64,000 nt of DNA, taken from assembly GCA_021325495.1 (NCBI GenBank), contig JAJPGZ010000012.1:120131-184130 (forward strand), written 5' to 3'. Shown in pieces: positions 214 through 64,000 of the stretch (positions are counted from its first letter, which is position 1; each line of letters starts with the position of its first letter). Under the pieces are notes generated by a model that saw nothing but the letters and a program-made list of their open reading frames with translations, made no database searches and was not told the DNA's origin. Source of the stretch: Spartobacteria bacterium. GTDB lineage: Bacteria; Verrucomicrobiota; Verrucomicrobiia; Chthoniobacterales; UBA10450. The translations under genes were made by a program, and so were the position numbers.

Positions 214-1380
214 GGGCGAAGGTGATGGACTCGTGGCCGATTGTTCCATCGGCTTCGCATTCACCCGCGCGCCGGGCGCGAGTTGCAATTGCCCGCTTGT
301 CACCACCATTTCATCCGGCTGTATGCCGTCTTTGATCACGGTGAGATCGCCCTGTTGCTGTCCCGGCTTCACCTGCCGTAACTCAAGCGTTGAATCCGGT
401 TTAACAACAAACACGTACGGCCCGCGTTGACCGATCTGCACCGCGCTACTCGGCACCAGTTTCGCATTCGAGAGCACATCGAGAATCAAACGCACGCGGA
501 CGAATTGCGCCGGCCACAGCGCATGATCCGGATTTGCCGTGATCCCGCGCGCCTTCACCGTCCCGACACCGGGTTGGACCGCGTTGTCGATGAAATAGAG
601 ATCACCTTCGCGCGGCGGAATGTTGTCGTTCTCCGCGTCCGTCACCACTTTCATTTTCGGATTGCCAAGATATTGCCTAACGATGGCCAAGTCCGGCTCG
701 GCCACGGTGAAATCGGTGTAAATCGGATCGAATCCCTGGACGGTGACGAGGGCCGGACTGCCGGGCCCGACCAGATTGCCAACATCGACATTGCGCAACC
801 CGACGCGGCCGTCGATCGGCGATTTGATGTAACAAAAATCTAGATTCACCTGCGCCGCCGCCACCGCTGCCTGCGCCTTCATCGCGTTCGCCTGCGCGGT
901 GTCCCATTCCTGTCGCGCCGTCACATTCTTCGCGACGAGCTCGGCTTCGCGTTTCAAATTCGCCTCGGCTAAGGCGCGATCGGCCTGCGCCGAAGCGAGC
1001 GCCGCTTCATACGGGCGCGGATCGATTCGAAATAAGAGATCGCCTTTTTTAACGTCGGCGCCGTCCTTGAATTCGCGACTGATAATCTGCCCGTTTACCT
1101 GCGCTTTGATGTCCACCGTCTCGAACGGTGCGGTCGTGCCGATTTCGTCCAGATAAAGCGGCACATCGGCGGTTGTAACTTTTGCGACTTCGACGTTTCT
1201 CGGCGGCGGAGCCGGCTGCGTTTTGTGATGCGCGACGAAACTTCGCAGCAACAGCAGAATCACGACGAGGCCGACAACTCCGATAACAATCCGCAACCGC
1301 CGCTTGCCCCCGACGCGTTGTTCGAGATCGCCCACCATCTCACGCGCGGCTTCGTTCACTTGTGTAATTGTCGGCGGCAT
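193..1380 (-). CDS. Efflux RND periplasmic adaptor (membrane fusion protein, HlyD family)
   Basis: ORF 193..1557 trimmed to the ATG at 1380 (MPPTITQ..., followed by TM helix IVIGVVGLVVILLLL). Adaptor-type motifs are present (GDLLFRIDPRPYEAAL, IKSPIDGRVG). The marR stop at 1382 abuts this start. Confidence 0.85.
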   Translation of the reverse strand: MPPTITQVNEAAREMVGDLEQRVGGKRRLRIVIGVVGLVVILLLLRSFVAHHKTQPAPPPRNVEVAKVTTADVPLYLDEIGTTAPFETVDIKAQVNGQIISREFKDGADVKKGDLLFRIDPRPYEAALASAQADRALAEANLKREAELVAKNVTARQEWDTAQANAMKAQAAVAAAQVNLDFCYIKSPIDGRVGLRNVDVGNLVGPGSPALVTVQGFDPIYTDFTVAEPDLAIVRQYLGNPKMKVVTDAENDNIPPREGDLYFIDNAVQPGVGTVKARGITANPDHALWPAQFVRVRLILDVLSNAKLVPSSAVQIGQRGPYVFVVKPDSTLELRQVKPGQQQGDLTVIKDGIQPDEMVVTSGQLQLAPGARVNAKPMEQSATSPSPSPAKIDNH

Positions 1381-1381
1381 A

Positions 1382-1837
1382 TCAGTGCTTGCCGTTGCGG
1401 CTTGCCATTCTTCGACCGTTCCCGCGGCCGTTCGTTGATTTTTCCTCTGCTTTGTCGCGCACACGTTCCAGCACGCGCATGCACGTGCGCAATTCCGCCG
1501 ATGACACGTCCGCCAAAAGTTCGCCGCGGAGCTTGTTCGCAGCCGCGGTGATTTCACTGATCACGCGTGTGGCGCGCCGGCCGAGATGCACCGTTTTGCA
1601 ACGGCGATCGTGCGCGGAGTTTTTGCGCGCGACCCAGCCGCCGCGCTCAAGGCGATGCAACAACGTCACTAAAGTCGGCTCCTCAATCTCGAGACGCGAT
1701 GCGATCTCGGCCTGAGTGATCGGTTCGCCCGCGAGCGAAAGGTGCAGAAGCGTGCGCCACTTCGCCTGACTAAGTCCGAGCGGCTTGAGGCGCTGGTCCA
1801 GCTTCGAGCGCCAGGCCCGCGCCGTGCCGTGCAACAA
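1382..1837 (-). CDS. MarR-family transcriptional regulator
   Basis: Winged-HTH core LSQAKWRTLLHLSLAGEPITQAEIASRLEIEEPTLVTLLHRLERGGWVARKNSAHDRRCKTVHL. The ORF track uses a TTG start. The frame stays open to 1885, so the true start is uncertain. Confidence 0.85.
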   Translation of the reverse strand: MLHGTARAWRSKLDQRLKPLGLSQAKWRTLLHLSLAGEPITQAEIASRLEIEEPTLVTLLHRLERGGWVARKNSAHDRRCKTVHLGRRATRVISEITAAANKLRGELLADVSSAELRTCMRVLERVRDKAEEKSTNGRGNGRRMASRNGKH

Positions 1838-1882
1838 AGGACCGAAGGCGTCGATGTCGATCTTGTCCGCGAGTTTCAGAAT

Positions 1883-1900: not shown

Positions 1901-1935
1901 CTCGCGCTCCTGTCAAACGGGAGATGTCGATCTTT

Positions 1936-3387
1936 TCAACCCGGGTCGAGCGCGAACAAAACCAGGGTTTGATTCCGATAATCCTTCACCCGCTTCACCA
2001 CCCGCGGATGCTTGGGCGACCATTGCTCGCTCGACATCGCCTTTCGTTCCTCATGCGGCCGCGTCAGAAAATAATGCGCGTCGTAGGGCACTTCATCCAC
2101 GCTGCTCAGATATTGCACCGGCGCGAGCATGTAGAAAAAGAACGGCTGATAATTTGGATCGACTGCGTACAGCGTCTCGTTAGGCGGAACCGACGCGTTT
2201 ATTTCCGCCGCGATGTTCTTCACCTTTTCTTTCACGACGAACGAAAAGATCGGTAGACTGATCACGCCGATCGCCACGAACAGCCCGACAAACACCACGC
2301 TGACGCGCGACCAGACCGGCTCGGTCGATCGCAATTTCGCCGGCAAGGCGTACGCGTCACGCGTGAAGGCGAGCGCGAGTAGACAGCAAAACGGCACCAA
2401 AACCGGAAGGGTGTAGCGCGGAGCGGAGCCAGGAATTAATCCGACGACGACCAGCGGTAGCGCCGTGCTCCAGGCGAGTGCGCGCGCGAGATTGCGTTCG
2501 TTTTCGTCGGAAAATTTTTCGAAACGCAAAAACGGAACGACGAGAATCCACGGGAGAAAATAGAACAGCGCTCGCGGAATGGTGGTGAGCCATGCGCGCC
2601 ATCCGAAGAAGCCGCCGGTGATGCGGCCGGCGAATTGATTGTTCCATGTTTTCATCATGCGTTCGGTTTCGGTCGCATGCATGAAAGGAATGAGCCATGC
2701 CGCAAAGATCGACATCATCACGATGATGCCTAACAAATGCGCGGGATGAAATAGGACGCGCCATTGTCGATCTTTCCACAAAACAAAACCGACGAGCGCG
2801 TAGAAAAAAACCAGATGGGTCGGACCTTTCGCGAGCCAGCCGAGCCCGAGAAAAATCCACGGCACGGTCCACGTAAGCCAGGGCGAACGGCGCTCGCGCC
2901 ACCAGCTCAACCAAAAAATCATGGCCAGGCCGCAGAGCGAAATGTAAAGCGCTTCGATTTCGACCAGTCGCCCTTTTTCGAGCGTGCCGAAATTCGTTAG
3001 CCAAATCAGCGCCGCCATGGTCGATCCAGCGCCAAGCGTTTGTTTTGCGATTGTCACAAACGCGATCGCCACCGCTAAGATCGACAACACCGATGGAACA
3101 CGCGCGGTCCATTCATTGCGCACACGAAAGATTTTAAACGAACCGGCGATGAGCCAGTTAATCAGCGGCGGCTTGCGGTAATACGCTTCGCCACCTACTT
3201 GCGGCACGAGATAATTGCCGCTCTCGATCATCGCCATCGCGGGCAAAATGCGGCGGCCTTCTTCGCCTTTGATCTCGAACAACCCGAGCGCGGGCAGATA
3301 GATCGCGGCCCAGACAATTGCGACCAACAAGAGCGGTGGCAGACGCGACATGCGTTCGATTGTTGCGCACATGTCGATCTTGTCCAT
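1936..3387 (-). CDS. Polytopic membrane glycosyltransferase, ArnT/PMT (GT39/GT83-like) family
   Basis: 483-aa multi-TM ORF with an N-terminal YYRKPPLINWLIAG loop typical of lipid-linked sugar transferases. The start is at 3387 or 3351. Confidence 0.8.
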   Translation of the reverse strand: MDKIDMCATIERMSRLPPLLLVAIVWAAIYLPALGLFEIKGEEGRRILPAMAMIESGNYLVPQVGGEAYYRKPPLINWLIAGSFKIFRVRNEWTARVPSVLSILAVAIAFVTIAKQTLGAGSTMAALIWLTNFGTLEKGRLVEIEALYISLCGLAMIFWLSWWRERRSPWLTWTVPWIFLGLGWLAKGPTHLVFFYALVGFVLWKDRQWRVLFHPAHLLGIIVMMSIFAAWLIPFMHATETERMMKTWNNQFAGRITGGFFGWRAWLTTIPRALFYFLPWILVVPFLRFEKFSDENERNLARALAWSTALPLVVVGLIPGSAPRYTLPVLVPFCCLLALAFTRDAYALPAKLRSTEPVWSRVSVVFVGLFVAIGVISLPIFSFVVKEKVKNIAAEINASVPPNETLYAVDPNYQPFFFYMLAPVQYLSSVDEVPYDAHYFLTRPHEERKAMSSEQWSPKHPRVVKRVKDYRNQTLVLFALDPG

Positions 3388-3502: not shown

Positions 3503-4771
3503 ATGAACGCCGAATTTATTGCCATGCTCGACTACCTGGAGCGGGAACGCGGGATCAAACGCGATGTCCTGCTCGAGGCGGTATCGACTGCGTTGCTCTC
3601 GGCCTCGAAAAAAAGCGTGAGCGCGTCACGCGATCTGCGCATCGACATCGACCCGAAGACCGGCGTCATTCGCGCGCTCGCGAAATTGCTCGTGGTCGAA
3701 GACGTCACGAATCCGCAGGACGAAATTTCGTTAGCCAAAGCGCGCAACATCAAAGCGGACGCGAACGTCGGTGACGAAGTGGAAGTGGAAGTGACTCCGA
3801 AAAATTTCGGCCGCATCGCCGCGCAAACCGCGAAGCAGGCGATGATGCAACGCATTCGTCAGGTCGAGAAGGAGATGATTTACGAGGAGTTCAAGGACCG
3901 CGCCGGTGAAATTGTTTCGGGCACGGTGCGCCGGTTCGATCGCTCGGATGTGATTCTCGATCTTGGCAAATTCGAAGCGATCATGCCGCAGCGCGAGCGC
4001 GTGGTGGTTGAAGATTACAACGTGGGCGATCGCTTGCGCGCCTATGTCGTCGCGGTCGATAACGGAATCCGCGGACCGGAAATCATTGTTTCGCGCAGCC
4101 ATCCGAATTTCGTTAGGCGACTTTTCGAAATGGAAGTGAGTGAAATTGCCGACGGCACGGTCGAGATTCGCGGCATCGCCCGCGAAGCGGGTTATCGGAC
4201 GAAGATCGCGGTCTGGAGCGCGAATGAAAAGGTCGATCCGGTCGGCGCTTGCGTCGGCATGCGTGGTTCGCGCGTGAAGAACATTGTGCGCGAGCTGAAT
4301 AACGAAAAGGTGGACATCATTCGTTGGAGCTCGGACCCGAAGGAATACGTGCTCGAGGCGCTGAAGCCGGCCAAGGTGAAAAACCTCGTGTTCGATACGG
4401 AAAAGAAGAGCGTGCAAATTTCCGTGGATGAAGATCAGCTTTCGCTCGCGATCGGGAAAAAGGGACAGAACGCGCGACTGACTTCGCGATTGACCGGTTG
4501 GGAAATCAACATCGACAAGGACACGTCGGCGACGACGGCGGTCGAGCAGAAGGTCGCGCAAGCGGCGCAAACGCTCGCGGCCGCGTTGCCGATCACGAAT
4601 GACCAGGCGATGACGCTGGTGAAGTCCGGTTTCACTAACTTAGAAGGATTGCGCGACGCGGACGTCTCTGATTTCGTGGACATCCTCGGCGTCGATGAAG
4701 CGAAGGCGCAGGAAATCCATGCGGCCGTGCCGCGAGAAGAAGCAGCAGCGCAGAACGCCGGCTCGGCCTAA
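3503..4771 (+). CDS. nusA: Transcription termination/antitermination factor NusA
   Basis: 422 aa with an N-terminal NusA domain, S1 and two KH domains (GACVGMRGSRVKNIVRELNNEKVDII). It is followed by infB. Confidence 0.95.
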   Translation: MNAEFIAMLDYLERERGIKRDVLLEAVSTALLSASKKSVSASRDLRIDIDPKTGVIRALAKLLVVEDVTNPQDEISLAKARNIKADANVGDEVEVEVTPKNFGRIAAQTAKQAMMQRIRQVEKEMIYEEFKDRAGEIVSGTVRRFDRSDVILDLGKFEAIMPQRERVVVEDYNVGDRLRAYVVAVDNGIRGPEIIVSRSHPNFVRRLFEMEVSEIADGTVEIRGIAREAGYRTKIAVWSANEKVDPVGACVGMRGSRVKNIVRELNNEKVDIIRWSSDPKEYVLEALKPAKVKNLVFDTEKKSVQISVDEDQLSLAIGKKGQNARLTSRLTGWEINIDKDTSATTAVEQKVAQAAQTLAAALPITNDQAMTLVKSGFTNLEGLRDADVSDFVDILGVDEAKAQEIHAAVPREEAAAQNAGSA

Positions 4772-4802
4772 CGAGCCATGAAAAAGATTTTTAGATATCA
4801 GA

Positions 4803-6977
4803 ATGGCAACGAAAACGACCAGCAAGACGGCAGCGAAAAAAACGGCGACCCGCAAAACCGCGGCGACGAAGCCGGCTTCCGGCAAAGCCAAGGTCGTTAA
4901 GAAAAAAACGGAACCGGCCCCGGCTCCGGAAGTTAAAAAGCCGGCCGCGCATAAACCGCCGCCGGCGCCGAAACGCCATGTCGAGAGCGTTTCGTTGATC
5001 GATAAACAAGCGGCGCCGAAGAAATCGGAAGACGGCGAAGTTAAGAAGAAAACGACGGTGTTGCCGCCAATCTCGCGCATTCGCGAATCCATGGCGGCGC
5101 CGCCGCCGAAACCGGTCGAGGCGCCGAAGCCCGAGCCGCCAAAGGAAGTTGTCGATCTTGCGCCGGAAGCGCCGGCGACTCCGGTGGAGGAGGAAGAGCC
5201 GCAGAATGTCATCCACATCAAGCCGCCGATTATTGTGAAGCAACTCGCGGCAGAGCTGGGCTTGAAACCGCATCAGGTCATCGCCGAGCTGATGGCTTTC
5301 AACATTTTTGCGAACATCAATCAGACGATCGAGCCCGACATCGCGTCGAAAATTGCGGAAGCGCACGGATTCGTTCTCGAAAAGGAGCGCCGCGAAAAAG
5401 GCGGCGGTGTGCACAAGGTCGAGCAGGTCGTGGTCGCGCCGCCCGCGCCCGTTATCCAGAAGGAAGAAGAATTAAAACCGCGCGGTCCCATCATCACTTT
5501 CATGGGTCATGTCGATCACGGTAAGACCTCGCTCATGGACGCGATCCGCAAGACGCGCGTCGCCGCCGGTGAAGCGGGCGGAATCACCCAACACATCGGC
5601 GCGTATTCGGTCGATCACAAAGGGTCGCGCATTACTTTCATTGATACGCCGGGTCACGCTGCGTTCACGGCCATGCGCGCGCGCGGCGCAAACGTGACCG
5701 ACATTGTCGTGCTCGTTGTCGCCGCGGACGACGGATTGATGCCGCAGACGCTCGAAGCGATCAGTCACGCCAAAGCTGCGCCACATGTGAAGATCATGGT
5801 GGCGATCAACAAAATCGATTTGCCCGGCGCGAACATCGACAGGGTAAAGAAACAACTTCAGGACCAGGGACTGACGCCCGAAGATTGGGGCGGCGAAACC
5901 ATTGTCGTGCCCGTTTCGGCTACGAAAGGTCAGGGCATCGATCAGTTGCTCGAGATGATGACGTTGCAGGCAGAGGTGATGGAATTGAAATCGTCACCGA
6001 CGGCAAAGGCGCGCGGCACTGTCATCGAAGCGCAGGTCGAAGCCGGCCGCGGACCGGTCGCGACCGTCATCGTGCAAATGGGCACGATACGCGTAGGCGA
6101 TCCATTCATCTGCGGCGATTACAGCGGCAAAGTGAAATCGCTCATCAACGATCAGGGCAAGATGATCAAGGAAGCGGGGCCGGCCATGCCGGTAAAAGTT
6201 CTTGGTTTCACCGGCCTCCCGAATGCCGGTGACGAATTCTTAGCCATGGAGTCTGAGCGCGAAGCTAAGCAACTAAGTGATGAACGGCTTGAAGCCAAGC
6301 GCGCCAACAAACTCGCGGCCCCCCAACGCGCCACTCTCGAAACATTGCTCGAAGCCGCCGATGGCAGGAAGACGCTGAAGATTGTCTTGAAAGCGGATGC
6401 GCAAGGCTCGCTCGAAGCGATCATTGGGGCGCTCGGTCAAATCGAAAGCAAGAAAATCAGTCTTGAATTCGTTCATTCGGCTGTCGGTCCCGTGTCCGAG
6501 TCGGACATTCTGCTCGCGAGCGCGTCCAACGCCGTGGTCGTTGGCTTCAACGTCAAAGTCGAGTCGAACGCGGTCACCGCCGCGCGTTCCGAAGGCGTGC
6601 AGGTAAAACTTTACAGCATCATCTACGAGCTGATCGATCAGATTAAAGAAGCGATGGCCGGATTGCTCGACCCGGAACATCGCGAGACGGTCATCGGACA
6701 CGCGGAAGTGAAACAAGTTTTCCAATTGAGCAAAGGTATCGTCGCCGGTTGTCTCGTGACCGACGGCCGGATTGCGCGCGTGGCGCGTGCGCGCGTCTTG
6801 CGCCGCCGTCAGCCGGTTTACGACGGCGGAATCTCGACGCTGCGTCGTTTTCAGGACGACGTGAAAGAAGTCCGGTCCGGTCTCGAGTGCGGTCTCAAGC
6901 TCGGCGATTTTAGCGAATATCAAGTCGGCGACATCATCGAGTCGTATCAACTCGAGCAAATCGCGCAGAAACTTTAA
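4803..6977 (+). CDS. infB: Translation initiation factor IF-2
   Basis: G-domain motifs [20 protein letters not shown] and NKIDL. The N-terminus is long, basic and Pro/Ala-rich. Confidence 0.95.
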
Positions 6978-7015: not shown

Positions 7016-7357
7016 ATGAAACATCGACAATTACGCGTGAACGAACTTCTCAAACGCGAGCTCAGCATTATCGTCGCCCGCGAATTAAGTTTCGAGAACG
7101 CGCTCGTCACCATCAATCAGGTCGATGTTACGACCGACCTCAAGAACGCGCACGTCTATGTCAGTGTCCTGGGCGAAAACAAAGACGTTCTCGCGCAGTT
7201 GGAAGAACATCGCGTCCCGCTCCAGACACAGCTTGCCCGTAACGTCGTGCTCAAATACACCCCGCATCTCATTTTCCATCTCGACGATTCGATCGAGCGC
7301 GGCACGCGCGTGATCAAAATCCTTCAGGAGATCGAGCCGCCTAACGACACCGAGTGA
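7016..7357 (+). CDS. rbfA: Ribosome-binding factor A
   Basis: 113 aa of RbfA-like sequence (NAHVYVSVLG, HLIFHLDDS), in the canonical position after infB. Confidence 0.9.
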   Translation: MKHRQLRVNELLKRELSIIVARELSFENALVTINQVDVTTDLKNAHVYVSVLGENKDVLAQLEEHRVPLQTQLARNVVLKYTPHLIFHLDDSIERGTRVIKILQEIEPPNDTE

Positions 7358-8334: not shown

Positions 8335-9034
8335 CGGCGTCCTGCTCGTCGACAAGGCCGATGGCATGACGTCGCACGACGTTGTTGCGATCGTTAGGCG
8401 CAAGCTCGACATCAAAAAAGTCGGCCACTGCGGCACGCTCGATCCGCTCGCGACCGGTTTACTTATTCTCACCATCGGTCGCGGCACGAAGATTCAGGAT
8501 CTGTTGATGAGCGAAGACAAAGTTTATGCCGGCACGCTTACGCTCGGTAGATCGACAAGTACGCAAGATCGACAAGGTGAAGTCGTCGAGACGCGCCCCG
8601 TTCCGGAATTGAACGAAGAACAAATTCGCGCCGCGTTCGAAAAGTTCCGCGGCGATTTTCATCAACTGCCGCCGATGGTCTCAGCTAAGAAACAGGGCGG
8701 CGTTCCGCTTTATAAACTCGCGCGTGAAGGCAAAACGGTGGAACGAGAGCCGCGTCTGGTCCATGTCTACGCCTACTCGATCGATAAGATCGCGTTGCCA
8801 GATATCGATTTTACGGTTCACTCGAGCAAAGGTTTTTACGTGCGCACCTACGCGCATGATATCGGCGAAGTCCTCGGCTGCGGCGCGCATTTGAAAAATC
8901 TGCGCCGGACCAAATCCGGACGTTTCGATGTCGATCTTGCAATTAGTGTCAGCGACATCCAAAGCAAGCCGCGCGACGAAATCGTCGGACGCATTCTAAG
9001 CTTGCCCCAAGTCTCCCGGATGCGCGGCGCATAA
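8312..9034 (+). CDS. truB: tRNA pseudouridine(55) synthase TruB
   Basis: ORF 8099..9034 trimmed to the ATG at 8312 (MSLTATPDGVLLVDKADGMTSHDVV). GTLDPLATGLL is present. Confidence 0.9.
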   Translation: MSLTATPDGVLLVDKADGMTSHDVVAIVRRKLDIKKVGHCGTLDPLATGLLILTIGRGTKIQDLLMSEDKVYAGTLTLGRSTSTQDRQGEVVETRPVPELNEEQIRAAFEKFRGDFHQLPPMVSAKKQGGVPLYKLAREGKTVEREPRLVHVYAYSIDKIALPDIDFTVHSSKGFYVRTYAHDIGEVLGCGAHLKNLRRTKSGRFDVDLAISVSDIQSKPRDEIVGRILSLPQVSRMRGA

Positions 9035-12041: not shown

Positions 12042-13306
<1,265 letters not shown>

Positions 13307-19679: not shown

Positions 19680-19718
19680 AGTGGCCGCTCCTGAATTTTG
19701 GACTCTACTAAGATCGAC

Positions 19719-34759: not shown

Positions 34760-34773
34760 CGAAGCGGGGTAGT

Positions 34774-36194: not shown

Positions 36195-36269
36195 GATCGA
36201 CATCTACCCTCTCGCCGGGAATGCGTGCGGCGATGGCACTGATTTAGCTTCTGTAGTCCGAGCACGCTC

Positions 36270-53334: not shown

Positions 53335-54324
53335 GTGCGACTATTGGTGACCGGCGGCTGCGGATTCATCGGGAGCAACTTTATTCGCTACGTTCTGCAA
53401 CATTACAAGCCGGCGCTCGTGACCAATGTGGATGTATTAACTTACGCCGGGAATCCCGCGAACCTCGCGGGCGTGGTCGAGGAATTTGGCGAACGTTACG
53501 AATTTTTCAAAGCCGACATCGCGAATGCCGACGCGATGGACGCGCTCATGACCGAGCACCAATTCTACGCCGTCATCAATTTCGCGGCGGAATCGCATGT
53601 CGATCGAAGCATCAACGATCCGGCGAATTTCATTCACACGAATGTAATCGGCACGAGTGTGCTGCTGGATGGCGCGCGGCGACATGGCGTGCAGGGATTC
53701 GTCCAGATTTCGACGGATGAAGTTTACGGTTCGTTAGGCGAAACCGGGAAGTTTACCGAGCAATCGCCGCTCGAACCGAGCTCGCCCTACTCCTCGAGCA
53801 AGGCGGGCGCCGATCTGCTCGCGCTCGCATGTCACAAAACTTACGGACAGGAAGTGATCGTGACGCGCTGCTCGAACAACTACGGACCGTATCAATTTCC
53901 CGAAAAACTCATTCCACTCATGATCATCAAAGCGCTGCGCGACGAGCCGCTGCCGGTTTATGGCGATGGAAAGAATGTGCGCGATTGGATTCATGTCGAA
54001 GATCATTGCGCGGGAGTGGTGGCGGCATTGTTCGAAGGCAAACCGGGCGCCACCTACAATTTCGGCGGCGGCAACGAAATGGTGAATGTCGATCTTGTGA
54101 AGATGATTTTGAAACAGTTAGGCAAACCGGAAAGTCTCATTTCATTTGTGGAAGATCGCCTTGGTCACGACCGCCGCTACGCCATCGATTCCAGTTTCGC
54201 CCAGCGCGAATTGAACTGGAAACCGCGCAAAGATTTTCAAAGCGGGCTGGCCGAAACGATTCAGTGGTACATCGACAATCAATCGTGGTGGCAGCCGCTG
54301 CTCGAGCGCGCGGGCCGGTATTAA
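53335..54324 (+). CDS. rfbB: dTDP-glucose 4,6-dehydratase
   Basis: GTG start at 53335 (MRLLVTGGCGFIGSNF). YSSSKAGADL catalytic motif. Confidence 0.9.
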   Translation: MRLLVTGGCGFIGSNFIRYVLQHYKPALVTNVDVLTYAGNPANLAGVVEEFGERYEFFKADIANADAMDALMTEHQFYAVINFAAESHVDRSINDPANFIHTNVIGTSVLLDGARRHGVQGFVQISTDEVYGSLGETGKFTEQSPLEPSSPYSSSKAGADLLALACHKTYGQEVIVTRCSNNYGPYQFPEKLIPLMIIKALRDEPLPVYGDGKNVRDWIHVEDHCAGVVAALFEGKPGATYNFGGGNEMVNVDLVKMILKQLGKPESLISFVEDRLGHDRRYAIDSSFAQRELNWKPRKDFQSGLAETIQWYIDNQSWWQPLLERAGRY

Positions 54325-54363: not shown

Positions 54364-56124
54364 GTGCGAAAACGTCTCCTACCGGACGCCGGTAATTCAC
54401 GCCCGATTTTGAGTTTGTCTCTGTGTGTGATCGGTCTTGGTCTGGCCATCCTGAGCGTAAAGGCGGCCTCACCGCGCGTTTCGTCACAAGCCGCGCTCAG
54501 CAAAATTTCGCCGTGGCTCTCCGCGCATGCGGCCGAATTACAGCCGATGGAATTTCTCGTCGTGCTTGGCGATCAAGCGGACTTGCGCGGCGCAAAGTCG
54601 TTGCGCACGAAGACGGAGAAAGGCCGGTTCGTTCGCGATGCGCTTTGGAACAAGGCGCAATCGGCCCAGGCGCCGTTGCTGAAGTGGTTGCAAGATCGAC
54701 ATGTTGAACACCGCGCGTTTTACATCGTGAACGCGATTTGGGTGAAAGCGCCATTCGCTCTCGCGCAACTAATCGCGCGGCGCGCGGATGTTTTGCGGAT
54801 CGAGGCGAATCCAGAAATCAAAAACGCGGTCGAGCCGACGACGCCTGCAAGATCGACAATGTCGCCGGACGCAGTGGACTGGATCCCGACCGGCATCACT
54901 TACACACGCGCGCCCGACGTTTGGAAAATGGGTTACACGGGCCAGGGAATCGTGGTCGCCGGCGCGGATACCGGTTATCGGTGGGATCACGACGCGCTGA
55001 AGAATCATTATCGCGGCTGGAACGGCACGAGCGCAGACCACAATTACAATTGGCACGACAGCGTTCACGAAAATGCGACCGCGAATTCCTGCGGACATGA
55101 TTCGACAACGCCGTGCGACGATTGGGGCCACGGCACGCACACGATGGGCACGGCGATCGGTGATGATGGCGGCGCGAATCAGATCGGCATGGCGCCGGGC
55201 GCAAAATGGATCGGTTGTCGAAACATGGATGCGAACAACGGGACGCCCACGCGTTACATCGAGTGCATGGAATTTTTCCTCGCGCCATATCCGCTCGGCG
55301 GCGACAAAAACCAGGGCGACGCCAGCAAAGCGCCCGATCTATCGACCAATTCGTGGGGTTGTCCGTCGAGTGAAGGTTGTCCGAGTAGCCTGATGCAAGC
55401 TGCAGTCGAAGCGCAACGCGCAGCGGGCATCGTGTTTGTCGCCGCAGCCGGAAACGGCGGACCAGGATGCACGACCGTGAGCGATGAGCCCGGACTTTAC
55501 GATGCTGCGTATTCCATTGGCGCATTGAATACGGGTGCGGACACGATCGCATCGTTTAGCAGTCGCGGACCCGTCACTGCCGACAACAGTTTACGAATGA
55601 AGCCGGATCTTTGCGCTCCGGGAACGAGTACGTTTTCATGCCTTCGAACTTCGACAAACGCATACGGGACCATGAGTGGCACGTCGATGGCGACGCCGCA
55701 CGTCGCGGGCGCGATCGCATTATTATGGTCGGCGCAGCCAGCATTGCGCCACGATGTTGCGCGCACCGAATCGATTCTCAACAGCACCGCCGTTCATCTC
55801 ACTGGCAGCACGTGCGATCTGCCGACAGCGTCGCCTAACAACACTTTTGGTTACGGTCGCCTCGACATCAAAGCCGCAGTCGATGGCGCGCTTGTCCGCA
55901 CGCTCGGCCTAACGAACGACGTCAACGGATTCAGTGTTAGCTTTTATGCGGTGCAAGGCCTGACCTATCGGCTCGAGCGCAAGATCGACATGTCGGATCC
56001 GAACTGGCAAAGCATCGCTGGTGTTTCCGATTTCACCGCGAGCACGACGGGCCCGGCGTCGATTGTCGATCCAACAGCGGGCGCGGAATCGCAGGCATTT
56101 TATCGCGTGCGGATGTTGCCCTAA
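54364..56124 (+). CDS. Secreted S8-family (subtilisin-like) serine peptidase
   Basis: Triad motifs VVAGADTGY, HGTHTMGT and GTSMATPHVAG, preceded by a signal/propeptide region. Confidence 0.85.
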   Translation: MRKRLLPDAGNSRPILSLSLCVIGLGLAILSVKAASPRVSSQAALSKISPWLSAHAAELQPMEFLVVLGDQADLRGAKSLRTKTEKGRFVRDALWNKAQSAQAPLLKWLQDRHVEHRAFYIVNAIWVKAPFALAQLIARRADVLRIEANPEIKNAVEPTTPARSTMSPDAVDWIPTGITYTRAPDVWKMGYTGQGIVVAGADTGYRWDHDALKNHYRGWNGTSADHNYNWHDSVHENATANSCGHDSTTPCDDWGHGTHTMGTAIGDDGGANQIGMAPGAKWIGCRNMDANNGTPTRYIECMEFFLAPYPLGGDKNQGDASKAPDLSTNSWGCPSSEGCPSSLMQAAVEAQRAAGIVFVAAAGNGGPGCTTVSDEPGLYDAAYSIGALNTGADTIASFSSRGPVTADNSLRMKPDLCAPGTSTFSCLRTSTNAYGTMSGTSMATPHVAGAIALLWSAQPALRHDVARTESILNSTAVHLTGSTCDLPTASPNNTFGYGRLDIKAAVDGALVRTLGLTNDVNGFSVSFYAVQGLTYRLERKIDMSDPNWQSIAGVSDFTASTTGPASIVDPTAGAESQAFYRVRMLP

Positions 56125-57048: not shown

Positions 57049-57743
57049 AAACAACTCTCTGCGGAATCACCTTGTCGATCTTTCTCTGCGCCGGCGCGCG
57101 CGCGGAATTGAAGTGGGAGCAAACGCAGATCGAGCTGCATCCCAAGCCTAACGACAAGCAGGCGGTCGCGCATTTTAAATACGAAAACATCGGCAAGACG
57201 CCGGTCCATTTTAAATCTGTGCACGCCTCGTGCGGTTGCACCACGGCCCAGACGCAGAAAACCGAAGTGCCGCCCGGCGAAAAGGGCGAAATCACCGCCA
57301 CATTCAACATCGGCGGTCGCACCGGGCTTCAGATGAAAACCGTTGCGGTGGTGACGGACGATCCGAAAAGTCCGAACACGACCCTGACTTTGAAGGCGAT
57401 CTTGCCGCAGATGCTCACAGTCAATCCGACATTCGTGTTTTGGAAAGGCGGCGAAGAACCGAAACCGAAAACGATTAACATCAAAGGCGGCTCGGATTTC
57501 GTGGTCAAGAACGTGAAGGTCACGCCGTCGAATCCCGAATTCACCACGAGCGTAGAGCCGAGCGGGGCCAGTGAGTGGAAAGTGAGCGTGCAACCCAAGT
57601 CCACCGACAAGGGTATGGCCGGAACGCTGACCATCGTGCCGGACTCACCGGATGTGGCCGCGCCCCAAGCGTATTACGCGAACGTGAGTGTGACCGCGAC
57701 CCCGCCGCCCGCGGCGGCGCCTTCACCGACGCCATCGCATTGA
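57045..57743 (+). CDS. DUF1573-domain protein
   Basis: Signal peptide and the HASCGCT motif typical of DUF1573. The C-terminus is Pro/Ala-rich. Confidence 0.75.
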   Translation: MKTTLCGITLSIFLCAGARAELKWEQTQIELHPKPNDKQAVAHFKYENIGKTPVHFKSVHASCGCTTAQTQKTEVPPGEKGEITATFNIGGRTGLQMKTVAVVTDDPKSPNTTLTLKAILPQMLTVNPTFVFWKGGEEPKPKTINIKGGSDFVVKNVKVTPSNPEFTTSVEPSGASEWKVSVQPKSTDKGMAGTLTIVPDSPDVAAPQAYYANVSVTATPPPAAAPSPTPSH

Positions 57744-57744: not shown

Positions 57745-58176
57745 GTGATCGCGCGCGCCTTGCGGCAGGCGGCGCTGCTCGTCGTGCTGGCATTCCTGCC
57801 CGCGATCGGCGAAGCCGTTTATTTTCGCGGCAAAGTTCCGTGGCAATCCCGCCTAACGAGCGGCCAGACTGTCGATGTCGATCTTGCGCGAAGCTGGGGC
57901 GAGAACGCGATGTGGGTCGATGCTCGCCCGGACAACGAATTCGCAGCCGATCACATTCCGAACGCAATTTTGCTGAACGAAGATCGCTGGAACGATTTGC
58001 TCCCGCAATTTCTCGCGCATTGGTCGCCGGAGAAAAAGATTGTCGTCTACTGCAGCGCCGCCAGCTGCAATCTGGCCGAGGAGGTCGCGCGCCGTCTGCG
58101 CGACGAAGCAAAATTGCCTAACGACATCCGCGTCCTGCAAGGCGGCTGGGAAGAATGGCAGAAGAAAAACAAATGA
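57745..58176 (+). CDS. Membrane-anchored rhodanese-domain protein
   Basis: An N-terminal TM helix and the rhodanese active-site loop VVYCSAASCNLAE. Confidence 0.75.
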   Translation: MIARALRQAALLVVLAFLPAIGEAVYFRGKVPWQSRLTSGQTVDVDLARSWGENAMWVDARPDNEFAADHIPNAILLNEDRWNDLLPQFLAHWSPEKKIVVYCSAASCNLAEEVARRLRDEAKLPNDIRVLQGGWEEWQKKNK

Positions 58177-59259: not shown

Positions 59260-59765
59260 AGATTCGTCTCGCGAGTTCGGGAGATCGCGACGAAATTTGG
59301 AAAATTTTTCGCGAGACCATTAAGGCTGGCGATACCTATGCGATCGATCCGGAAATCAGTCGCGACGATGCGCTCGCATACTGGTTTGCAACCGGAACGC
59401 GCACCTGCGTTGCCGTGCAAGATCGACAACTACTCGGCACATATATTTTGCGACCGAACCAGGCGGGCGGCGGCGCCCATGTCGCGAACGCGGCATTCAT
59501 CGTCGCGCAAGACGCGCGCAGCAAAGGAGTCGGTCGCGCCATGGCGGTCCATTGTTTGGAGGAAGCACGGCGACTCGGCTTTCGCGCGATGCAATTTAAC
59601 TTCGTTGTCTCGACGAATGAATCCGCCATTCGCTTGTGGAAAGATCTCGGCTTCGAAATCGTCGCGACCTTGCCGAAAGCGTTTCGGCATCCGACGAAAG
59701 ATTATGTCGATGTTTACGTGATGTTTCGCTCGCTCGCGCAAAATTCTGAGGCAAATTCGGCCTAA
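59250..59765 (+). CDS. GNAT-family N-acetyltransferase
   Basis: ATG at 59250 (MELEIRLASSGDRDEI). Acetyl-CoA loop QDARSKGVGRAM. Confidence 0.8.
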   Translation: MELEIRLASSGDRDEIWKIFRETIKAGDTYAIDPEISRDDALAYWFATGTRTCVAVQDRQLLGTYILRPNQAGGGAHVANAAFIVAQDARSKGVGRAMAVHCLEEARRLGFRAMQFNFVVSTNESAIRLWKDLGFEIVATLPKAFRHPTKDYVDVYVMFRSLAQNSEANSA

Positions 59766-59767
59766 CG

Positions 59768-60094
59768 ATGCAAACCATCATCCAGGTCATCGCCACCGGC
59801 CGCGGTTCGTTGCGGACTCAGATCATGAGCGATCCGCAACTCGAGAAAAAATTCGGCTTCGAAAAAATTTGGGCGAAACAGCCGGGACGCCCGCACGGTT
59901 GGGCGAAGATCCACAGCGCCCGCGACGTTCACGGCGCGATCAATCTCGAATGGCACGCGCGGAGTTGCACACTCATCTGTCGCGTCGTCACCAAACTCGG
60001 CCACAAACCGAATTCGATCATCGGCGACTTCATCGATTATCTGCTCGCGCGACATCAAAGCCGCATTCTCGCCATTCACATCATGCGGCGGTGA
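59768..60094 (+). CDS. Hypothetical protein
   Basis: 108-aa ORF in a coding-like context. I recognise no family. Confidence 0.4.
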   Translation: MQTIIQVIATGRGSLRTQIMSDPQLEKKFGFEKIWAKQPGRPHGWAKIHSARDVHGAINLEWHARSCTLICRVVTKLGHKPNSIIGDFIDYLLARHQSRILAIHIMRR

Positions 60095-60097: not shown

Positions 60098-60385
60098 CTA
60101 TTTCCGGCGAATGCGATCGAGCAGCCTCGCCATCGCGCTCTTCTTTTCCGGCGGCGACGGCGAAATGTTCATGTCGATCTTGACCGTCGTGCGCGGTGGC
60201 GGTGCGAAGGAAATGCGCTGCGTTTTTGCGAGGATGCGGTATTGCGCGACCGGTTTCCAATCGCTCATCCCTTCGTGCCAGTAGAAATCTTCCTTCAGTT
60301 CGCCGGCGAGAATTCTGCGGTTGAACTCCTCCTCGCGGAATTCGCCTAACGAAGTGCCGTCGATGCGACAAACGTGAAAGATCAT
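60098..60385 (-). CDS. GYF_2 (DUF4339)-like small protein
   Basis: ORF trimmed to the ATG at 60385 (MIFHVCRIDGTSLGEFREEEF...YWHEGMSDWKPV). It overlaps the upstream gene by ATGA. Confidence 0.6.
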   Translation of the reverse strand: MIFHVCRIDGTSLGEFREEEFNRRILAGELKEDFYWHEGMSDWKPVAQYRILAKTQRISFAPPPRTTVKIDMNISPSPPEKKSAMARLLDRIRRK

Positions 60386-63099
60386 TTTCGATTTGCGATG
60401 GTGCCGAATTCGCCTTGCTGGTGAATTAGTTTCGCGACTAACGCGGTCCAACCGGTTTGATGCGACGCGCCCAGCCCCGCGCCGGTGTCGCCGTGAAAAT
60501 ACTCGTGAAACAAATAGAGATGTCGATCTTCCTTCTGCGCTGTAGGGGACGCTGTTAGCGTCCCAGGGAAGCTGGCAGCTTCGCCTACAGAAGAAGAATT
60601 TTGCATAGCGCGCTCGAAGGGTCTCTCGCCGGATTCGTTAGGCAGAAAAAGTTTAATTAAACGGTTCGATAATTCGTTCGCGATTTCCTTCAAGGTTAGC
60701 AAATTTCCCGAGCCGGTCGGACATTCCACTTTGAAATCGTCGCCGTAGTAATGATGAAACTGCTGCAATGATTCGATCAGGAGATAATTGATCGGGAACC
60801 AGACCGGTCCGCGCCAGTTCGAGTTGCCGCCGAAAATCCCGGTCTGCGATTCCGCCGGTTCGTAGGAAACAATCTTTTCTTCGTCGCGAATCGTTAGCCG
60901 ATACGGATTTCGTTCGTGAAATTTGCTGAGTGAACGCACGCCGTAGTCGCTGAGAAATTCATCCGGATCGAGCATGCGCCGCAACAAACATTTCATGCGA
61001 TGACCGCGGGTGAGCGCAACCAGCCGGCGCTCTTTCATTCCCGGCTCCTGCCAGCGCGAGACGAGACTGGCGAGGTCGGGCCGATGTTCGAGATACCATT
61101 CGAGACGCGCCTTGAATCCGGGCAGCGCGTCGATGAGTTGCCATTGAATCGTCTCGACCGCGAGGAGCGGCATCAAACCGACTAACGAACGCACTTTTAG
61201 CGGAATGTAACGTCCGCCCGGCGTGTGCAGGACGTCGTAATAAAATTCGTCCTCTTCATTCCACAGCCCGATGCCTTTGCCGCCGAGATTGTTCATGGCG
61301 GCGGCGATGCTGAGGAAATGCTCGAAGAATTTGGTGGCGATGTTTTCGTAAACGTGATTCTCGGCCGCGAGCTCGATCGCGATCCGCATCAAATTGAGCG
61401 AAAACATTCCCATCCAGCTCGTCCCGTCGCTTTGTTCGAGATGCGAGCCGTCGGGAAAGCGCGCGCTGCGATCGAAGACGCCGATATTGTCGAGTCCGAG
61501 AAATCCGCCTTCGAAAATGTTGCGACCGGTTGAGTCCTTGCGATTCACCCACCAGGTGAACGCGAGCAGCATTTTGTGAAAGACGGTTTCAAGAAATGCG
61601 CGATCGCCTTTGCCGGTTTGTTTGCGTTCGATCTGGTAAATGCGCCACGCCGCCCATGCCAGCACCGGCGGATTCACATCGCCGAAATTCCATTCATACG
61701 CGGGAATCTGTCCGTTCGGATGTTGGAACCATTCGCGCACGACGACATCGATCTGTGATTTGGCGAATGCAGGATCGACAAGTGCCAGCGGGATGCAGTG
61801 AAAGGCGAGGTCCCACGAGGCGTACCACGGATACTCCCACTTGTCCGGCATCGACATCACGCGCTCGTTGTAGAGATGCTGCCAATCGAAATTGCGTCCG
61901 GAATAGCGTTCGTTAGGCGGCGGTGGTTGGGCCGGGTCGCCCTCAAGCCATTGCTCGACGATGTAATGATAGAATTGCTTGTTCCAGATCAGCCCGGCGA
62001 GCGCCTGTCGGTAAACGGCGCAATGGTCGCTCGTTAGGCAACTCGACTCCCGCTGCGCGTAAAATTCGTCCGCTTCCGCTTTGCGCGCGGCGAAGACGGC
62101 GTCGAAATCTTTGAACGCGTCGCGGGCATTTCGTCCGGGGAGTTCGTCGCGCTTGGTTAGGCGCAACCTGACGCCAACGCTTTCGCCCGCTGCGATGACG
62201 AAGCGATAATGCGCCGCGGCTTTCGTTCCGACTTTGTTCGGATTAACGATGTCGATCTTGTCCTGAATCACGGCATCGCCGATGGAATCCTTCACATAAC
62301 GCGAGTGGTTCGGAACGCCCCACAGCCGCTCGAGATTGGAATCGTTTTCAGTGAAGAGCAGTCGCTCCGCTTTTTCGCAATGGAGACGATACGTGCCGAG
62401 CAAGTTGTGACTAAGCTCGATCTCGTTAGGCGTTCGCTCTTGCAAGTTCGGTTTGTCGTTGTCCCGCCCCCAGCACCACGTGTTCCGAAACCAAATCGTC
62501 GGCAAGATGTGCAGCGTGGCCGGTTCGGGACCGCGGTTGGTCGCAGTCGCGCGAATCAGAATGTCGAACGGCGACGCTTTCGCGTATTCGACTTCGACGT
62601 CGAAGAAGCGATTCTCGGCGAACACATCGGTGTTCCAGATTTCGAACTCGCCTTCGCTCTTGGAACGTGCGCCGCTTCGCCTAACGAGCTCGTCATACGG
62701 AAACGCGGCCTGCGGATAACGGTACAAGATCGACATGTAACTGTGGCTCGGCGTCGCGTCGGTGTACCAATAAAGCTCCTTCACATCTTCGCCGTGATTC
62801 CCCTGCGGCCCGCTCACGCCGAAAAGTCGCTCCTTCAAAAACCCGTCGCGCTCATTCCAAAATGCGAATGCAAAACAGAGCCGACCTTTGAAATCGGAAA
62901 TGCCGGCGAGGCCATCTTCATTCCAGCGATACGCGCGCGAACGGGCGTGATCATGCGGCAAATAATTCCAGGCGTCGCCGTTCGCGCTGTAATCTTCGCG
63001 CACCGTGCCCCACGCCCGCTCGGCCAGATACGGGCCCCAGAAATACCACGGTTCGTTAGGCGAATTATTTTCCGCCAGTCGCTGCTGCTCGGCGTTCAT
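60382..63099 (-). CDS. GH63-like (alpha/alpha)6 glucosidase-type glycoside hydrolase
   Basis: 905 aa. C-terminal catalytic region ...FHEYFHGDTGAGLGASHQTGWT. Confidence 0.85.
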   Translation of the reverse strand: MNAEQQRLAENNSPNEPWYFWGPYLAERAWGTVREDYSANGDAWNYLPHDHARSRAYRWNEDGLAGISDFKGRLCFAFAFWNERDGFLKERLFGVSGPQGNHGEDVKELYWYTDATPSHSYMSILYRYPQAAFPYDELVRRSGARSKSEGEFEIWNTDVFAENRFFDVEVEYAKASPFDILIRATATNRGPEPATLHILPTIWFRNTWCWGRDNDKPNLQERTPNEIELSHNLLGTYRLHCEKAERLLFTENDSNLERLWGVPNHSRYVKDSIGDAVIQDKIDIVNPNKVGTKAAAHYRFVIAAGESVGVRLRLTKRDELPGRNARDAFKDFDAVFAARKAEADEFYAQRESSCLTSDHCAVYRQALAGLIWNKQFYHYIVEQWLEGDPAQPPPPNERYSGRNFDWQHLYNERVMSMPDKWEYPWYASWDLAFHCIPLALVDPAFAKSQIDVVVREWFQHPNGQIPAYEWNFGDVNPPVLAWAAWRIYQIERKQTGKGDRAFLETVFHKMLLAFTWWVNRKDSTGRNIFEGGFLGLDNIGVFDRSARFPDGSHLEQSDGTSWMGMFSLNLMRIAIELAAENHVYENIATKFFEHFLSIAAAMNNLGGKGIGLWNEEDEFYYDVLHTPGGRYIPLKVRSLVGLMPLLAVETIQWQLIDALPGFKARLEWYLEHRPDLASLVSRWQEPGMKERRLVALTRGHRMKCLLRRMLDPDEFLSDYGVRSLSKFHERNPYRLTIRDEEKIVSYEPAESQTGIFGGNSNWRGPVWFPINYLLIESLQQFHHYYGDDFKVECPTGSGNLLTLKEIANELSNRLIKLFLPNESGERPFERAMQNSSSVGEAASFPGTLTASPTAQKEDRHLYLFHEYFHGDTGAGLGASHQTGWTALVAKLIHQQGEFGTIANRK
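60540..60590. other. 51-nt nested-hairpin, in-frame segment inside the GH63-like gene
   Basis: An outer stem CTGTAG (60540-60545) / CTACAG (60585-60590) encloses GGGACGC-TGTTA-GCGTCCC (60546-60564) and GAAGCT-GGC-AGCTTC (60568-60582). It encodes SVGEAASFPGTLTASPT (17 codons). Confidence 0.45.
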
Positions 63100-63143
63100 G
63101 GGTTTGCGACGGTCATAGACCGCCGCTACATTTTTAGCGAGCG

Positions 63144-63677
63144 ATGAATGCGACTGTCGATCCGAACATCACGATGCGGGAACTGCTGGAGCAATTTCCC
63201 GGCGCGCAGCGTGCGCTCTTTCGCAAATATCACATCGGCGGTTGCAGCAGCTGCGGGTTTTCGCCGGAGGAAACGCTCGCCGGCGTCTGTGCGCGCAATG
63301 AAAATGTCGATGTCGATCTTGCCATTGAGCACATCATCGCGAGCGAAGAAGCCGAGCGGGCGATGCAGATTGCGCCGCGCGAATTGGCGGAGCGATTGAA
63401 GAATGAAAAAATTCAGCTCGTCGATGTCCGCACGCGTGAAGAATTCGAAGCGGTCAAGATCGACAAGGCGCATTTGTTTACCGCGGAGTTGATGTCGCAG
63501 TTATCGCCCTCGGTTCCGACGGTGATTTACGATCATACCGACGGGCGCAGCCTCGACGCCGCCGCCTATTTTCAAGGACACGGATTCAGCGACGTGAAAG
63601 CGCTGCGCGGCGGGATCGACGCGTGGAGTGTCGAGGTCGATCCAAAATTACCGCGCTATCATCTGGAAAATGCCTAA
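63144..63677 (+). CDS. DUF1858 (redox-disulfide-like) plus rhodanese-domain protein
   Basis: N-terminal HIGGCSSCGF motif. The C-terminal rhodanese fold has Asp in place of the catalytic Cys (VIYDHTDGRS). Confidence 0.7.
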   Translation: MNATVDPNITMRELLEQFPGAQRALFRKYHIGGCSSCGFSPEETLAGVCARNENVDVDLAIEHIIASEEAERAMQIAPRELAERLKNEKIQLVDVRTREEFEAVKIDKAHLFTAELMSQLSPSVPTVIYDHTDGRSLDAAAYFQGHGFSDVKALRGGIDAWSVEVDPKLPRYHLENA

Positions 63678-64000
63678 CGAAGACAAAATCGAAGACGCGA
63701 TTCGCAATCCGCAAAACCTTGGCGAGATGAAGGACGCGGACGCGGTCGGCACTGTCGGGAGTGCTGATTGCGGCGACATGTTGCGCATGTGGATCAAGTT
63801 TCGCGAAGAAGACGGGAAAAAAGTGATCGATCGCGCGACCTTTCAATCGTTCGGATGTCAGACCGCGATCGCGGTCGCGAGTGTGGCGACGGAAATGTTG
63901 AAGGGGAAAACGCCGGAGGAAGCGAAGTCGATGTCGGGTGAAGAATTGTCGGCGCCGTTAGGGCCGTTGCCGCCGGTGAAAATTCATTGCGCGCAGTTGG
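63670..64000 (+). CDS. NifU/IscU-type Fe-S cluster scaffold (N-terminal domain), truncated by the window end
   Basis: GSADCGDML, FGCQTAIA and IHCAQL: the three scaffold cysteines. The ATG at 63670 overlaps the upstream stop. Confidence 0.8.
   Translation, partial: MPNEDKIEDAIRNPQNLGEMKDADAVGTVGSADCGDMLRMWIKFREEDGKKVIDRATFQSFGCQTAIAVASVATEMLKGKTPEEAKSMSGEELSAPLGPLPPVKIHCAQL

Follow-up and report, generated by a model that had tools for sequence, protein, structure and literature searches.

A 64-kb stretch of the genome of a Spartobacteria bacterium (contig JAJPGZ010000012.1, positions 120,131 to 184,130; the whole stretch is called the window below) raises the question of what has written one short word into it dozens of times. 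The word, W1, is the 9-mer GCCTAACGA (complement TCGTTAGGC), with CCTAACGA (complement TCGTTAGG) as its 8-mer core form; the other hyper-abundant word of the window, W2, is the 10-mer (A)AGATCGACA of the AAGATCGACA type. We found that W1 is subject to a nucleotide-level, strand-symmetric and frame-independent force that overrides codon bias and forces amino-acid changes, and that this force acts in some lineages but not in others, sister lineages having different target words. Taking the analyses together, W1 may be a word for self-recognition on double-stranded DNA, of the kind known as DNA uptake sequence (DUS) among Neisseriaceae and as uptake signal sequence (USS) among Pasteurellaceae, spread by biased uptake and recombination; on this identification we are evenly divided between belief and doubt.

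Genes were taken as called on the source contig. We counted 60 copies of the 8-mer in the window by script, 36 as CCTAACGA and 24 as TCGTTAGG, the same figures as in an initial annotation of this DNA, which had set them against about two expected copies. The expected number is 1.8 from base composition, 0.5-3.0 from Markov models of orders 1 to 3 and 10 from an order-4 model, so the scripted count is far from expectation. The 9-mer occurs 55 times (34 GCCTAACGA and 21 TCGTTAGGC; about one copy per 1.1 kb), against 0.5 copies expected from base composition, 0.2-1.2 from Markov orders 0-3 and 6.7 from order 4; the order-5 expectation of 38-44 involves a circle, since W1 itself makes up most of the hexamer signal. 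When the 20,262 codons of the window were shuffled synonymously 200 times, pooled or within genes and with proteins and codon usage kept, the 8-mer fell to 4.1-5.7 copies (maximum 12). Some four of those left are out of the shuffle's reach, one being intergenic and three lying on stop codons or gene overlaps.

The motif is sharp, the 55 exact copies comparing with 42 one-mismatch copies that are spread over 27 possible variants, and the central TAAC is almost never altered among them. Near-copies that keep the CTAACG core number 28 at seven of eight positions, in line with the 25 or so estimated earlier, and four at six of eight. The flanks of the 60 copies are unrelated and are unique beyond about -5 to +1; closer in, G stands at -1 in 55 of 60 copies, positions -5 to -3 are weakly T-rich and A is preferred at +1. 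The word is contiguous, non-palindromic and without a palindromic core. Given its occurrence in both orientations, in four stop-free frames and between unique flanks, W1 is a word of DNA and not of RNA or protein.

Genes accommodate the word in every frame open to it. W1 is read as P-N-[DE] 21 times, as x-L-T-x 12 times, as [FILV]-V-R 12 times and as S-L-G 11 times, while the remaining two frames hold TAA or TAG; the earlier tally of 22, 12, 13 and 11 was right about the use of four frames and one too high for the first and the third. Within the window, W1 spells 21 of the 24 P-N-[DE] tripeptides (88%), all 21 with the rare proline codon CCT, and 11 of the 15 S-L-G tripeptides (73%), and roughly one in three L-T and V-R contexts is written with it. 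Permissive protein contexts are thus close to saturated with W1. The codons used in its frames (CCT, CTA, TTA and AGG) are rare ones, and of the CCT, AGG and CTA codons of the window the word alone contains 36%, 33% and 23%, respectively. Peptide composition is shifted as well: P-N-[DE] is observed 24 times against 4.1 expected from amino-acid frequencies (about 6-fold; permuted controls give 3-6), and S-L-G 15 times against 7.8. In orthologous proteins P-N-[DE] reaches 8.6 per 10,000 amino acids in W1-rich genomes and 3.1 in W1-poor ones, and P-N-[DE] and S-L-G are about three times commoner in the former. Peptides encoded by uptake sequences have reportedly been described in Haemophilus.

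This peptide excess bears on an objection raised with the initial annotation, namely that codon-pair or peptide usage, such as a surplus of Pro-Asn-Glu, might fully explain the enrichment. The surplus is real, but it is a consequence of the DNA word and not its cause, because the word uses the rare CCT, because three other frames are enriched too and because word-poor relatives lack the excess; moreover, synonymous shuffling leaves only some four copies. The view that codon or peptide usage is not the explanation therefore held.

To follow W1 beyond this genome we used 160 loci, 80 of them NusA-anchored species representatives and 80 metagenomic loci around the gene of glycoside hydrolase family 63 (GH63). 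The NusA-anchored loci all belong to Chthoniobacterales / Candidatus Udaeobacter (Verrucomicrobiota), with NusA 86-94% identical, and the window itself is from a metagenome contig of a Candidatus Udaeobacter; L002 and L003, which share the NusA of the window, are contigs 99.97-100% identical to it, and the best metagenomic match of GH63 is 80% identical. W1 reaches 5-15 copies per 10 kb in ten loci (L010, L028, L030, L057, L058, L069, L071, L075, L082 and L083) and 2-3 per 10 kb in four more NusA-anchored loci, while about 60 NusA-anchored species have no copies or a density close to background (0-1.4 per 10 kb). W1 is accordingly an all-or-none, lineage-specific trait within Candidatus Udaeobacter. 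All W1-rich clades have the same core GCCTAACGA, which one of them (clade B) extends to GCCTAACGAgT. Other species have words of their own, namely AAGATCGACA or AACATCGACA (common core ATCGACA), (G)AATGACGAA and CCCTACAA. In a concatenated tree the genome of the window forms a deep branch between the W1 clade and the clade of the ATCGACA type and AATGACGAA.

Orthologous sites showed how the word is kept, gained and replaced. With all loci projected onto the genes of the window, a W1 site of one W1-rich genome was matched by the same 9-mer in a second W1-rich genome in 39.9% of comparisons, the baseline for aligned 9-mers being 10.2%; in W1-poor genomes the identical 9-mer was found in 0.7% against a baseline of 6.2%, synonymous spellings being used instead. 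At residue 27 of TruB (8391-8398, minus strand, antisense to truB, I-V-R), exact W1 is present in 10 of 14 W1-rich and in 0 of 54 W1-poor genomes, and the latter write the same V-R with common codons. Similarly, the F-V-R-R of NusA at the W1 site at 4110-4117 (minus strand, antisense to nusA, F-V-R) is identical in 65 relatives, so that the word is purely synonymous there. Other sites change the protein, with SLG against ALD in relatives, LPND against LPID or LPLD, and PPND in a variable tail. Since permissive sites are near saturation, shared W1 sites may be convergent and are no proof of common descent. In the GH63 gene of the window, the majority of W1 sites are absent from all 44-48 metagenomic relatives; these sites being mostly specific to the lineage of the window, W1 has been accumulating in that lineage.

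Along the window, 52 of the 55 9-mer copies lie in coding DNA, which makes up 95.7% of the sequence, and a single copy is fully intergenic (20932-20939, minus strand); the claim that W1 is not enriched between genes is thus borne out. Where a frame of the word contains a stop, the stop can be put to use. The TAA of W1 is the stop codon of nusA (4769-4771, in the plus-strand copy at 4767-4774), of a GNAT gene (59763-59765, plus-strand copy at 59761-59768) and of a DUF1858-rhodanese gene (63675-63677, plus-strand copy at 63673-63680, which at the same time reads P-N-E in the overlapping NifU gene), at the coordinates previously given for all three. Likewise confirmed was a one-mismatch variant that stops two convergent genes at once: ACGTTAGGC (complement of GCCTAACGT; 30121-30129, minus strand) supplies TAG at 30125-30127 to the plus-strand EamA gene and TAA, the complement of 30124-30126, to a minus-strand cyclase gene. 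The stretch from 31795 to 37604 does lack W1, as had been pointed out, but a gap of this size carries no meaning (P = 0.18), and W2 occurs there nine times, its normal content. The orientation ratio of 34:21 in the window results from gene orientation and frame use.

There is no obvious island in the window, and the word-free genes are highly conserved ones, such as infB, pilT and ndk. Few or no copies of either word were seen in the long conserved genes at 4803-6977 (infB), 18603-20882, 33578-34759 and 36270-37352. The word-poor conserved genes include infB, an ndk-like gene, an aminotransferase gene, a pyridine nucleotide-disulphide oxidoreductase gene and pilT, consistent with protein constraint limiting where words can be written. 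Rfam and tRNA scans of the window returned only tRNA-Gly and tRNA-Leu.

W1 and W2 proved to be independent of one another. A W1 copy has its closest 10-mer at a median distance of 149 bp, a random position at 161 bp, and the densities of the two words along the window correlate at r = 0.18, so the co-variation along the DNA that had been suggested as a check was not found. Their phylogenetic distributions differ too, GCCTAACGA being dense in one set of Udaeobacter species and the AAGATCGACA type in another. Each has its own look-alike variant in relatives, AATGACGAA for W1 and AACATCGACA for W2. The density of W1 is half that of the 10-mer, and the ratio of exact to one-mismatch copies is 1.3 for W1 and 4.4 for the 10-mer. 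Of the W2 copies, 20% are intergenic or at gene edges, and nine pairs of W2 form direct, head-to-tail doublets with a spacing of 15-17 bp, the majority near gene ends or between genes, an arrangement never taken by W1. The doublets are those at 185/201, 3372/3387, 8549/8566, 12013/12029, 17111/17127, 25237/25253, 26780/26796, 33499/33515 and 34774/34789, and their unit resembles TAAGATCGACAATnnn twice in tandem.

The initial annotation had called a genome with two such words unusual and had left two recognition systems or one common generating mechanism as its explanations. The coexistence is real but not unique: the nearest relatives at the GH63 locus (72-80% amino-acid identity) frequently contain both words, at lower density (W1 2-4.5 and W2 2-9 per 10 kb in L087-L091, L094, L097, L098, L103 and L134), and this makes the two-word state a stable property of the lineage and not a quirk of one assembly. 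The independence of the second word was upheld as well. Because the words differ in phylogenetic distribution, in position and in behaviour, these comparisons favour two recognition specificities over one generating mechanism.

If W1 is an uptake sequence, a candidate receptor for DNA on the cell surface, most plausibly belonging to a type IV pilus, would bind it (in the known systems, the cognate receptor is ComP in Neisseria and, by prediction, ComN in Pasteurellaceae); conspecific fragments carrying W1 would be taken up preferentially and then recombined; and alleles that create W1 would spread by molecular drive until balanced by codon and protein constraint. The second, unrelated word AAGATCGACA would be maintained in parallel, giving two recognition specificities. 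As in hosts of DUS and USS, type IVa pilus retraction ATPases are encoded. The window contains a pilT-like gene, whose product is a candidate component of a DNA-uptake machine (36270-37352, plus strand; TIGR01420, 452.6 bits), and a second gene of the PilT/PilU family, pilU-like (37353-38519, plus strand; 351 bits), and a third member of the family lies 6.5 kb upstream of the window (L001 2153-3367); all three score above the curated cut-off of 319.1 bits. The tandem pair is located downstream of a response-regulator gene (35430-36194), and the third gene adjoins another response regulator.

The resemblance to DUS and USS is extensive. W1, like the USS of Pasteurellaceae (core AAGTGCGGT) and the DUS of Neisseriaceae (GCCGTCTGAA and its dialects), is a short non-palindromic word present about once per kb, and one copy per 1.1 kb is within the density range of USS and DUS. 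It shares with them the occurrence in both orientations, mostly or often inside genes and in a biased subset of frames, the tripeptide signature with part of the sites at poorly conserved residues, and the lineage specificity, related species having variant words. For DNA uptake enhancing sequences (DUES), the DUES preprint describes a biased use of frames and a tendency to occupy poorly conserved positions, and about half of DUES are paired in terminators according to the same source. By size, abundance, strand symmetry, coding and peptide signature and lineage specificity W1 agrees with DUES; it departs from them in not being paired in terminators. DUES were restricted to Neisseriaceae and Pasteurellaceae in a 2025 survey, with 11 and 2 dialects, respectively.

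Several observations weigh against such an identification. We found no inverted W1 pairs in terminators of the window, where the closest copies are 121 bp apart and only one is intergenic. This smallest gap is itself significant (P = 0.001), but relatives show the effect weakly or not at all, and we rejected even spacing as a property of W1. About half of the related species have no hyper-abundant word at all, and the words of sister species are mostly unrelated in sequence and not 1-3 substitutions apart, as dialects of DUS and USS are; with unrelated sister words, uptake would demand that receptors be switched or exchanged at an unusual speed. No prepilin-type signal motif was present in the proteins of the window or in six-frame translations of the flanking DNA, and neither a pilin nor a receptor gene, nor ComEA, ComEC or DprA, was noticed in the window and the flanking DNA. 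The host, which is uncultured, belongs to the phylum Verrucomicrobiota, for which the literature searched held no report of competence. The paper on ComEC evolution does not mention Verrucomicrobia, searches for Udaeobacter or Verrucomicrobia together with competence, pili or uptake sequences gave nothing relevant in the literature searched, and searches for GCCTAACGA, TCGTTAGGC, AAGATCGACA and TGTCGATCTT there returned only primers and unrelated matches. Another departure from DUS and USS is the presence of two unrelated words at high density in one genome, and we know of no uptake-sequence organism that runs two recognition modules in parallel. On the present sequence evidence W1 appears to behave like an uptake sequence and cannot yet be filed as one.

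The conservation of W1 at orthologous positions above background, its hyper-abundance and its broad spread over nearly all genes would also be expected of a cis-acting site kept by selection on the chromosome, either bound by a protein that organises the nucleoid or chromosome, as has been proposed for the highly iterated palindrome HIP1 of cyanobacteria, or serving as a Chi-like signal for recombination or nuclease control by which DNA is marked as self. The same conservation argument was used for selection on HIP1 (Xu et al.). HIP1 (GCGATCGC) is over-represented 15- to 300-fold both inside open reading frames and in the DNA between them; long without a known function, it is a recent candidate for an uptake word now linked to natural transformation, and part of its action may be on recombination, 'reminiscent of Chi'. 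A periodic distribution at 10-90 kb is among the criteria for words of the HIP type. Yet HIP1 is a palindrome with two orphan methyltransferase sites that extends over nearly the whole phylum, whereas W1 is no palindrome, contains no evident methylase site and varies patchily from species to species. Chi and the KOPS (FtsK-orienting polar sequences) or architecture-imparting sequences are likewise over-represented oligomers, which housekeeping machines recognise on DNA. In 15 loci all oriented by nusA (replication direction assumed), W1 is unskewed, at 100:97. Chi and KOPS are strongly co-oriented with replication and only few-fold enriched, and the density of W1 and its more than 50-fold excess exceed the levels of Chi. 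That many relatives live without any word makes W1 dispensable and speaks against a housekeeping role on the chromosome, and the on/off pattern, the unrelated sister words and the wordless half of the species fit a cis-acting site poorly. We regard it as rather unlikely.

Arbitrary switching of specificity would be easier to understand if the words were footprints of mutation or repair, left by a methyltransferase acting with a mismatch nuclease or by biased conversion that turned near-matches into the word steadily and to no advantage, or tags for methylation-dependent transformation, as is now suggested for HIP1. Restriction-modification and methyltransferase genes typically differ in specificity, in an arbitrary way, from one close relative to the next, and the patchy, unrelated words would fit this; HIP-type words are tied to orphan methyltransferases, the palindromic octamers GGGATCCC and TGGATCCA are abundant in some relatives, and the 10-mer W2 contains GATC. 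W1 itself is a poor substrate for such an explanation, being a contiguous 9-mer, non-palindromic and without a palindromic core, which to our knowledge is not a usual methyltransferase specificity. Very-short-patch repair restores one position only and yields few-fold, not more than 50-fold, enrichment; the one-mismatch spectrum of W1 shows no transition-specific depletion, and the window has no DNA methyltransferase gene. A footprint of this type appears unlikely to us. The lower density of W1 relative to the 10-mer and its ratio of 1.3 against 4.4 might instead mark a relic, driven in an ancestor and now decaying passively, with only the 10-mer active. In two nusA loci, L043 and L049, one-mismatch copies outnumber exact ones (15 to 5 and 8 to 1), and these genomes could, from such counts, be decaying or nascent carriers. 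However, the ratio of the window falls inside the 0.6-3.4 of other W1-rich genomes, an 88% saturation of P-N-[DE] by a rare codon is not expected after decay, and most GH63 sites are gains specific to the lineage of the window, all of which renders a relic very unlikely. Scarcely credible, finally, is a by-product of coding (codon pairs or peptides) or of mobile repeats such as repetitive extragenic palindromes (REP), miniature inverted-repeat transposable elements or hairpins like NTS. The proteome does over-represent Pro-Asn-Glu/Asp, but four frames and both strands are enriched, the synonymous shuffle removes W1, rare codons are used and the peptide excess is missing in word-poor relatives. 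REP and the NTS/dRS3 repeats of the Ssn paper reach hundreds of copies per genome, and NTS is linked to transformation; they are hairpins of 20-35 nt and almost always intergenic, unlike the structureless 9-mer, of which 95% of copies are intragenic singletons without a hairpin, between unique flanks. A coding artefact and a mobile-repeat origin were thus refuted by flanks, shuffle, rare codons and word-poor relatives, and the NTS/Ssn-type hairpin was ruled out as a model by size, structure and location.

Among known systems, DUS and USS are closest to W1, followed by HIP1. A wider proposal, which we put forward tentatively and think more doubtful than the uptake function of W1 itself, is that Candidatus Udaeobacter uses switchable genome 'barcodes' for DNA self-recognition, with at least two word families (GCCTAACGA/AATGACGAA and AAGATCGACA/AACATCGACA), each with its own module that is gained, lost or re-specified, and with two running in parallel in the present genome and its nearest relatives. 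More radically, a new kind of conversion or repair drive, sequence-specific and exchangeable in its specificity, could have written the words in place of uptake bias.

Further words were noticed in the relatives. A third one, (G)AATGACGAA, attains up to about 11 copies per 10 kb in L008, L013, L037, L077, L079 and L081 (also in L007, L032 and L045); sharing T.ACGAA with W1, it could by its sequence be a dialect of W1. The word tgcCCTACAa occurs 4-6 times per 6-16 kb at the GH63 locus of L108, L112 and L116, the last of which also has W1 and W2. Over-represented palindromic octamers are GGGATCCC (10 copies in L079), TGGATCCA (6 in L060) and GCACGTGC (6 in L053), and the HIP1-like CGCGATCGC is found 14 times in L149 and 11 times in L160, both more distant relatives. 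The apparent words of L055 and L078 (the set of CCACTCAACC, AACGTCCAAC and CTCGGGCTC, which includes L065) were discarded, since their flanks in L055 and L078 show short tandem repeats; the abundant word of L065 is suspected to be a tandem repeat likewise.

The remaining copies in the window are given here by frame, as matches to the 9-mer unless marked as 8-mer only, and with sense or antisense relative to the gene. Copies in sense orientation that read P-N-E are located in a PMT_2 gene (2177-2184, minus strand; common to L058, L071, L082 and L083), the malate synthase gene (13677-13684, minus), prmA (17863-17870, plus), a metallo-beta-lactamase-fold gene (26917-26924, minus), recN (28244-28251 and 28826-28833, both plus), a YaaH-family gene (31787-31794, minus), a hypothetical 412-aa gene (43176-43183 and 43401-43408, both plus), a MacB/FtsX gene (45614-45621, plus), a FabA-like gene (49508-49515, plus; 49688-49695, plus, 8-mer only) and a hypothetical 611-aa gene (50902-50909, minus), where the copy directly abuts a 10-mer. 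The GH63 gene has four such copies, all on the minus strand: 60635-60642, absent at this position in 47 metagenomic relatives; 61910-61917, common to L091, L107 and L116; 62423-62430, lineage-specific; and 63053-63060, otherwise only in L116. P-N-D is read in sense orientation in rbfA (7340-7347, plus), at a variable position, in the MacB/FtsX gene (47336-47343, plus), in a DUF1573 gene (57147-57154, plus) and in a rhodanese gene (58117-58124, plus).

The L-T frame, also in sense orientation, gives R-L-T-T in a GH57 gene (22013-22020, plus), G-L-T-M in lpxC-fabZ (23505-23512, plus) and G-L-T-K in recN (27847-27854, plus), the EamA gene (29614-29621, plus) and a hybrid histidine kinase gene (40435-40442, plus). 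It gives G-L-T-I in the MacB/FtsX gene (46168-46175, plus), R-L-T-S in a PHP-domain gene (48801-48808, plus) and in a rhodanese gene (57852-57859, plus), G-L-T-N in an S8 peptidase gene (55908-55915, plus) and C-L-T-S in GH63 (62031-62038, minus; lineage-specific). Two copies in this frame are 8-mer only, Y-L-T-T in the 611-aa gene (51509-51516, minus) and I-L-T-K in a PMT_2 gene (52748-52755, minus).

Antisense copies read V-R or S-L-G. I-V-R is found in an RND-MFP gene (676-683, plus), whose orthologous site is W1 in 8 of 12 W1-rich genomes, and in the MacB/FtsX gene (46467-46474 and 47604-47611, both minus); V-V-R in the isocitrate lyase gene (12963-12970, plus) and a hypothetical gene (26223-26230, plus); L-V-R in the malate synthase gene (14411-14418, plus), a PMT_2 gene (52038-52045, plus) and GH63 (62680-62687, plus; common to L089 and L090); and F-V-R in a hydrolase gene (16738-16745, plus; 8-mer only) and lpxC-fabZ (23846-23853, minus). 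S-L-G is encoded in a DUF6249 gene (11386-11393, plus), the DAHP synthase gene (16040-16047, plus), lpxA (24561-24568, minus), the metallo-beta-lactamase-fold gene (27163-27170, plus), the pilU-like gene (37605-37612, minus; 38118-38125, minus, 8-mer only), the MacB/FtsX gene (47825-47832, minus), the PHP-domain gene (48289-48296, minus), the 611-aa gene (49840-49847, plus), an epimerase gene (53731-53738, minus) and a GYF_2 gene (60345-60352, plus).

The literature searched contained no description of words of the W1 or W2 type, or of any uptake sequence, in Verrucomicrobiota. What is new here is the phylum, the presence of two unrelated hyper-abundant words in one genome and the patchwork of unrelated words at species level. 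Irrespective of their function, W1 and W2 distort codon-usage and peptide statistics, as seen from the roughly 6-fold excess of P-N-E and from the third of AGG and CCT codons taken up by the word, and as genome barcodes they could help to bin soil metagenomic contigs and to assign these to hosts. Natural transformation that is habitual and self-directed has no clearer signature in genomes than uptake sequences. If W1 is one, it would be the first DUS/USS-like word in the Planctomycetes-Verrucomicrobia-Chlamydiae (PVC) group, and the on/off pattern among species together with the two coexisting words would amount to a natural experiment in how uptake specificities arise, switch and limit gene flow. 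It would also mean frequent homologous DNA exchange in a dominant, globally abundant and uncultured soil lineage with a reduced genome.

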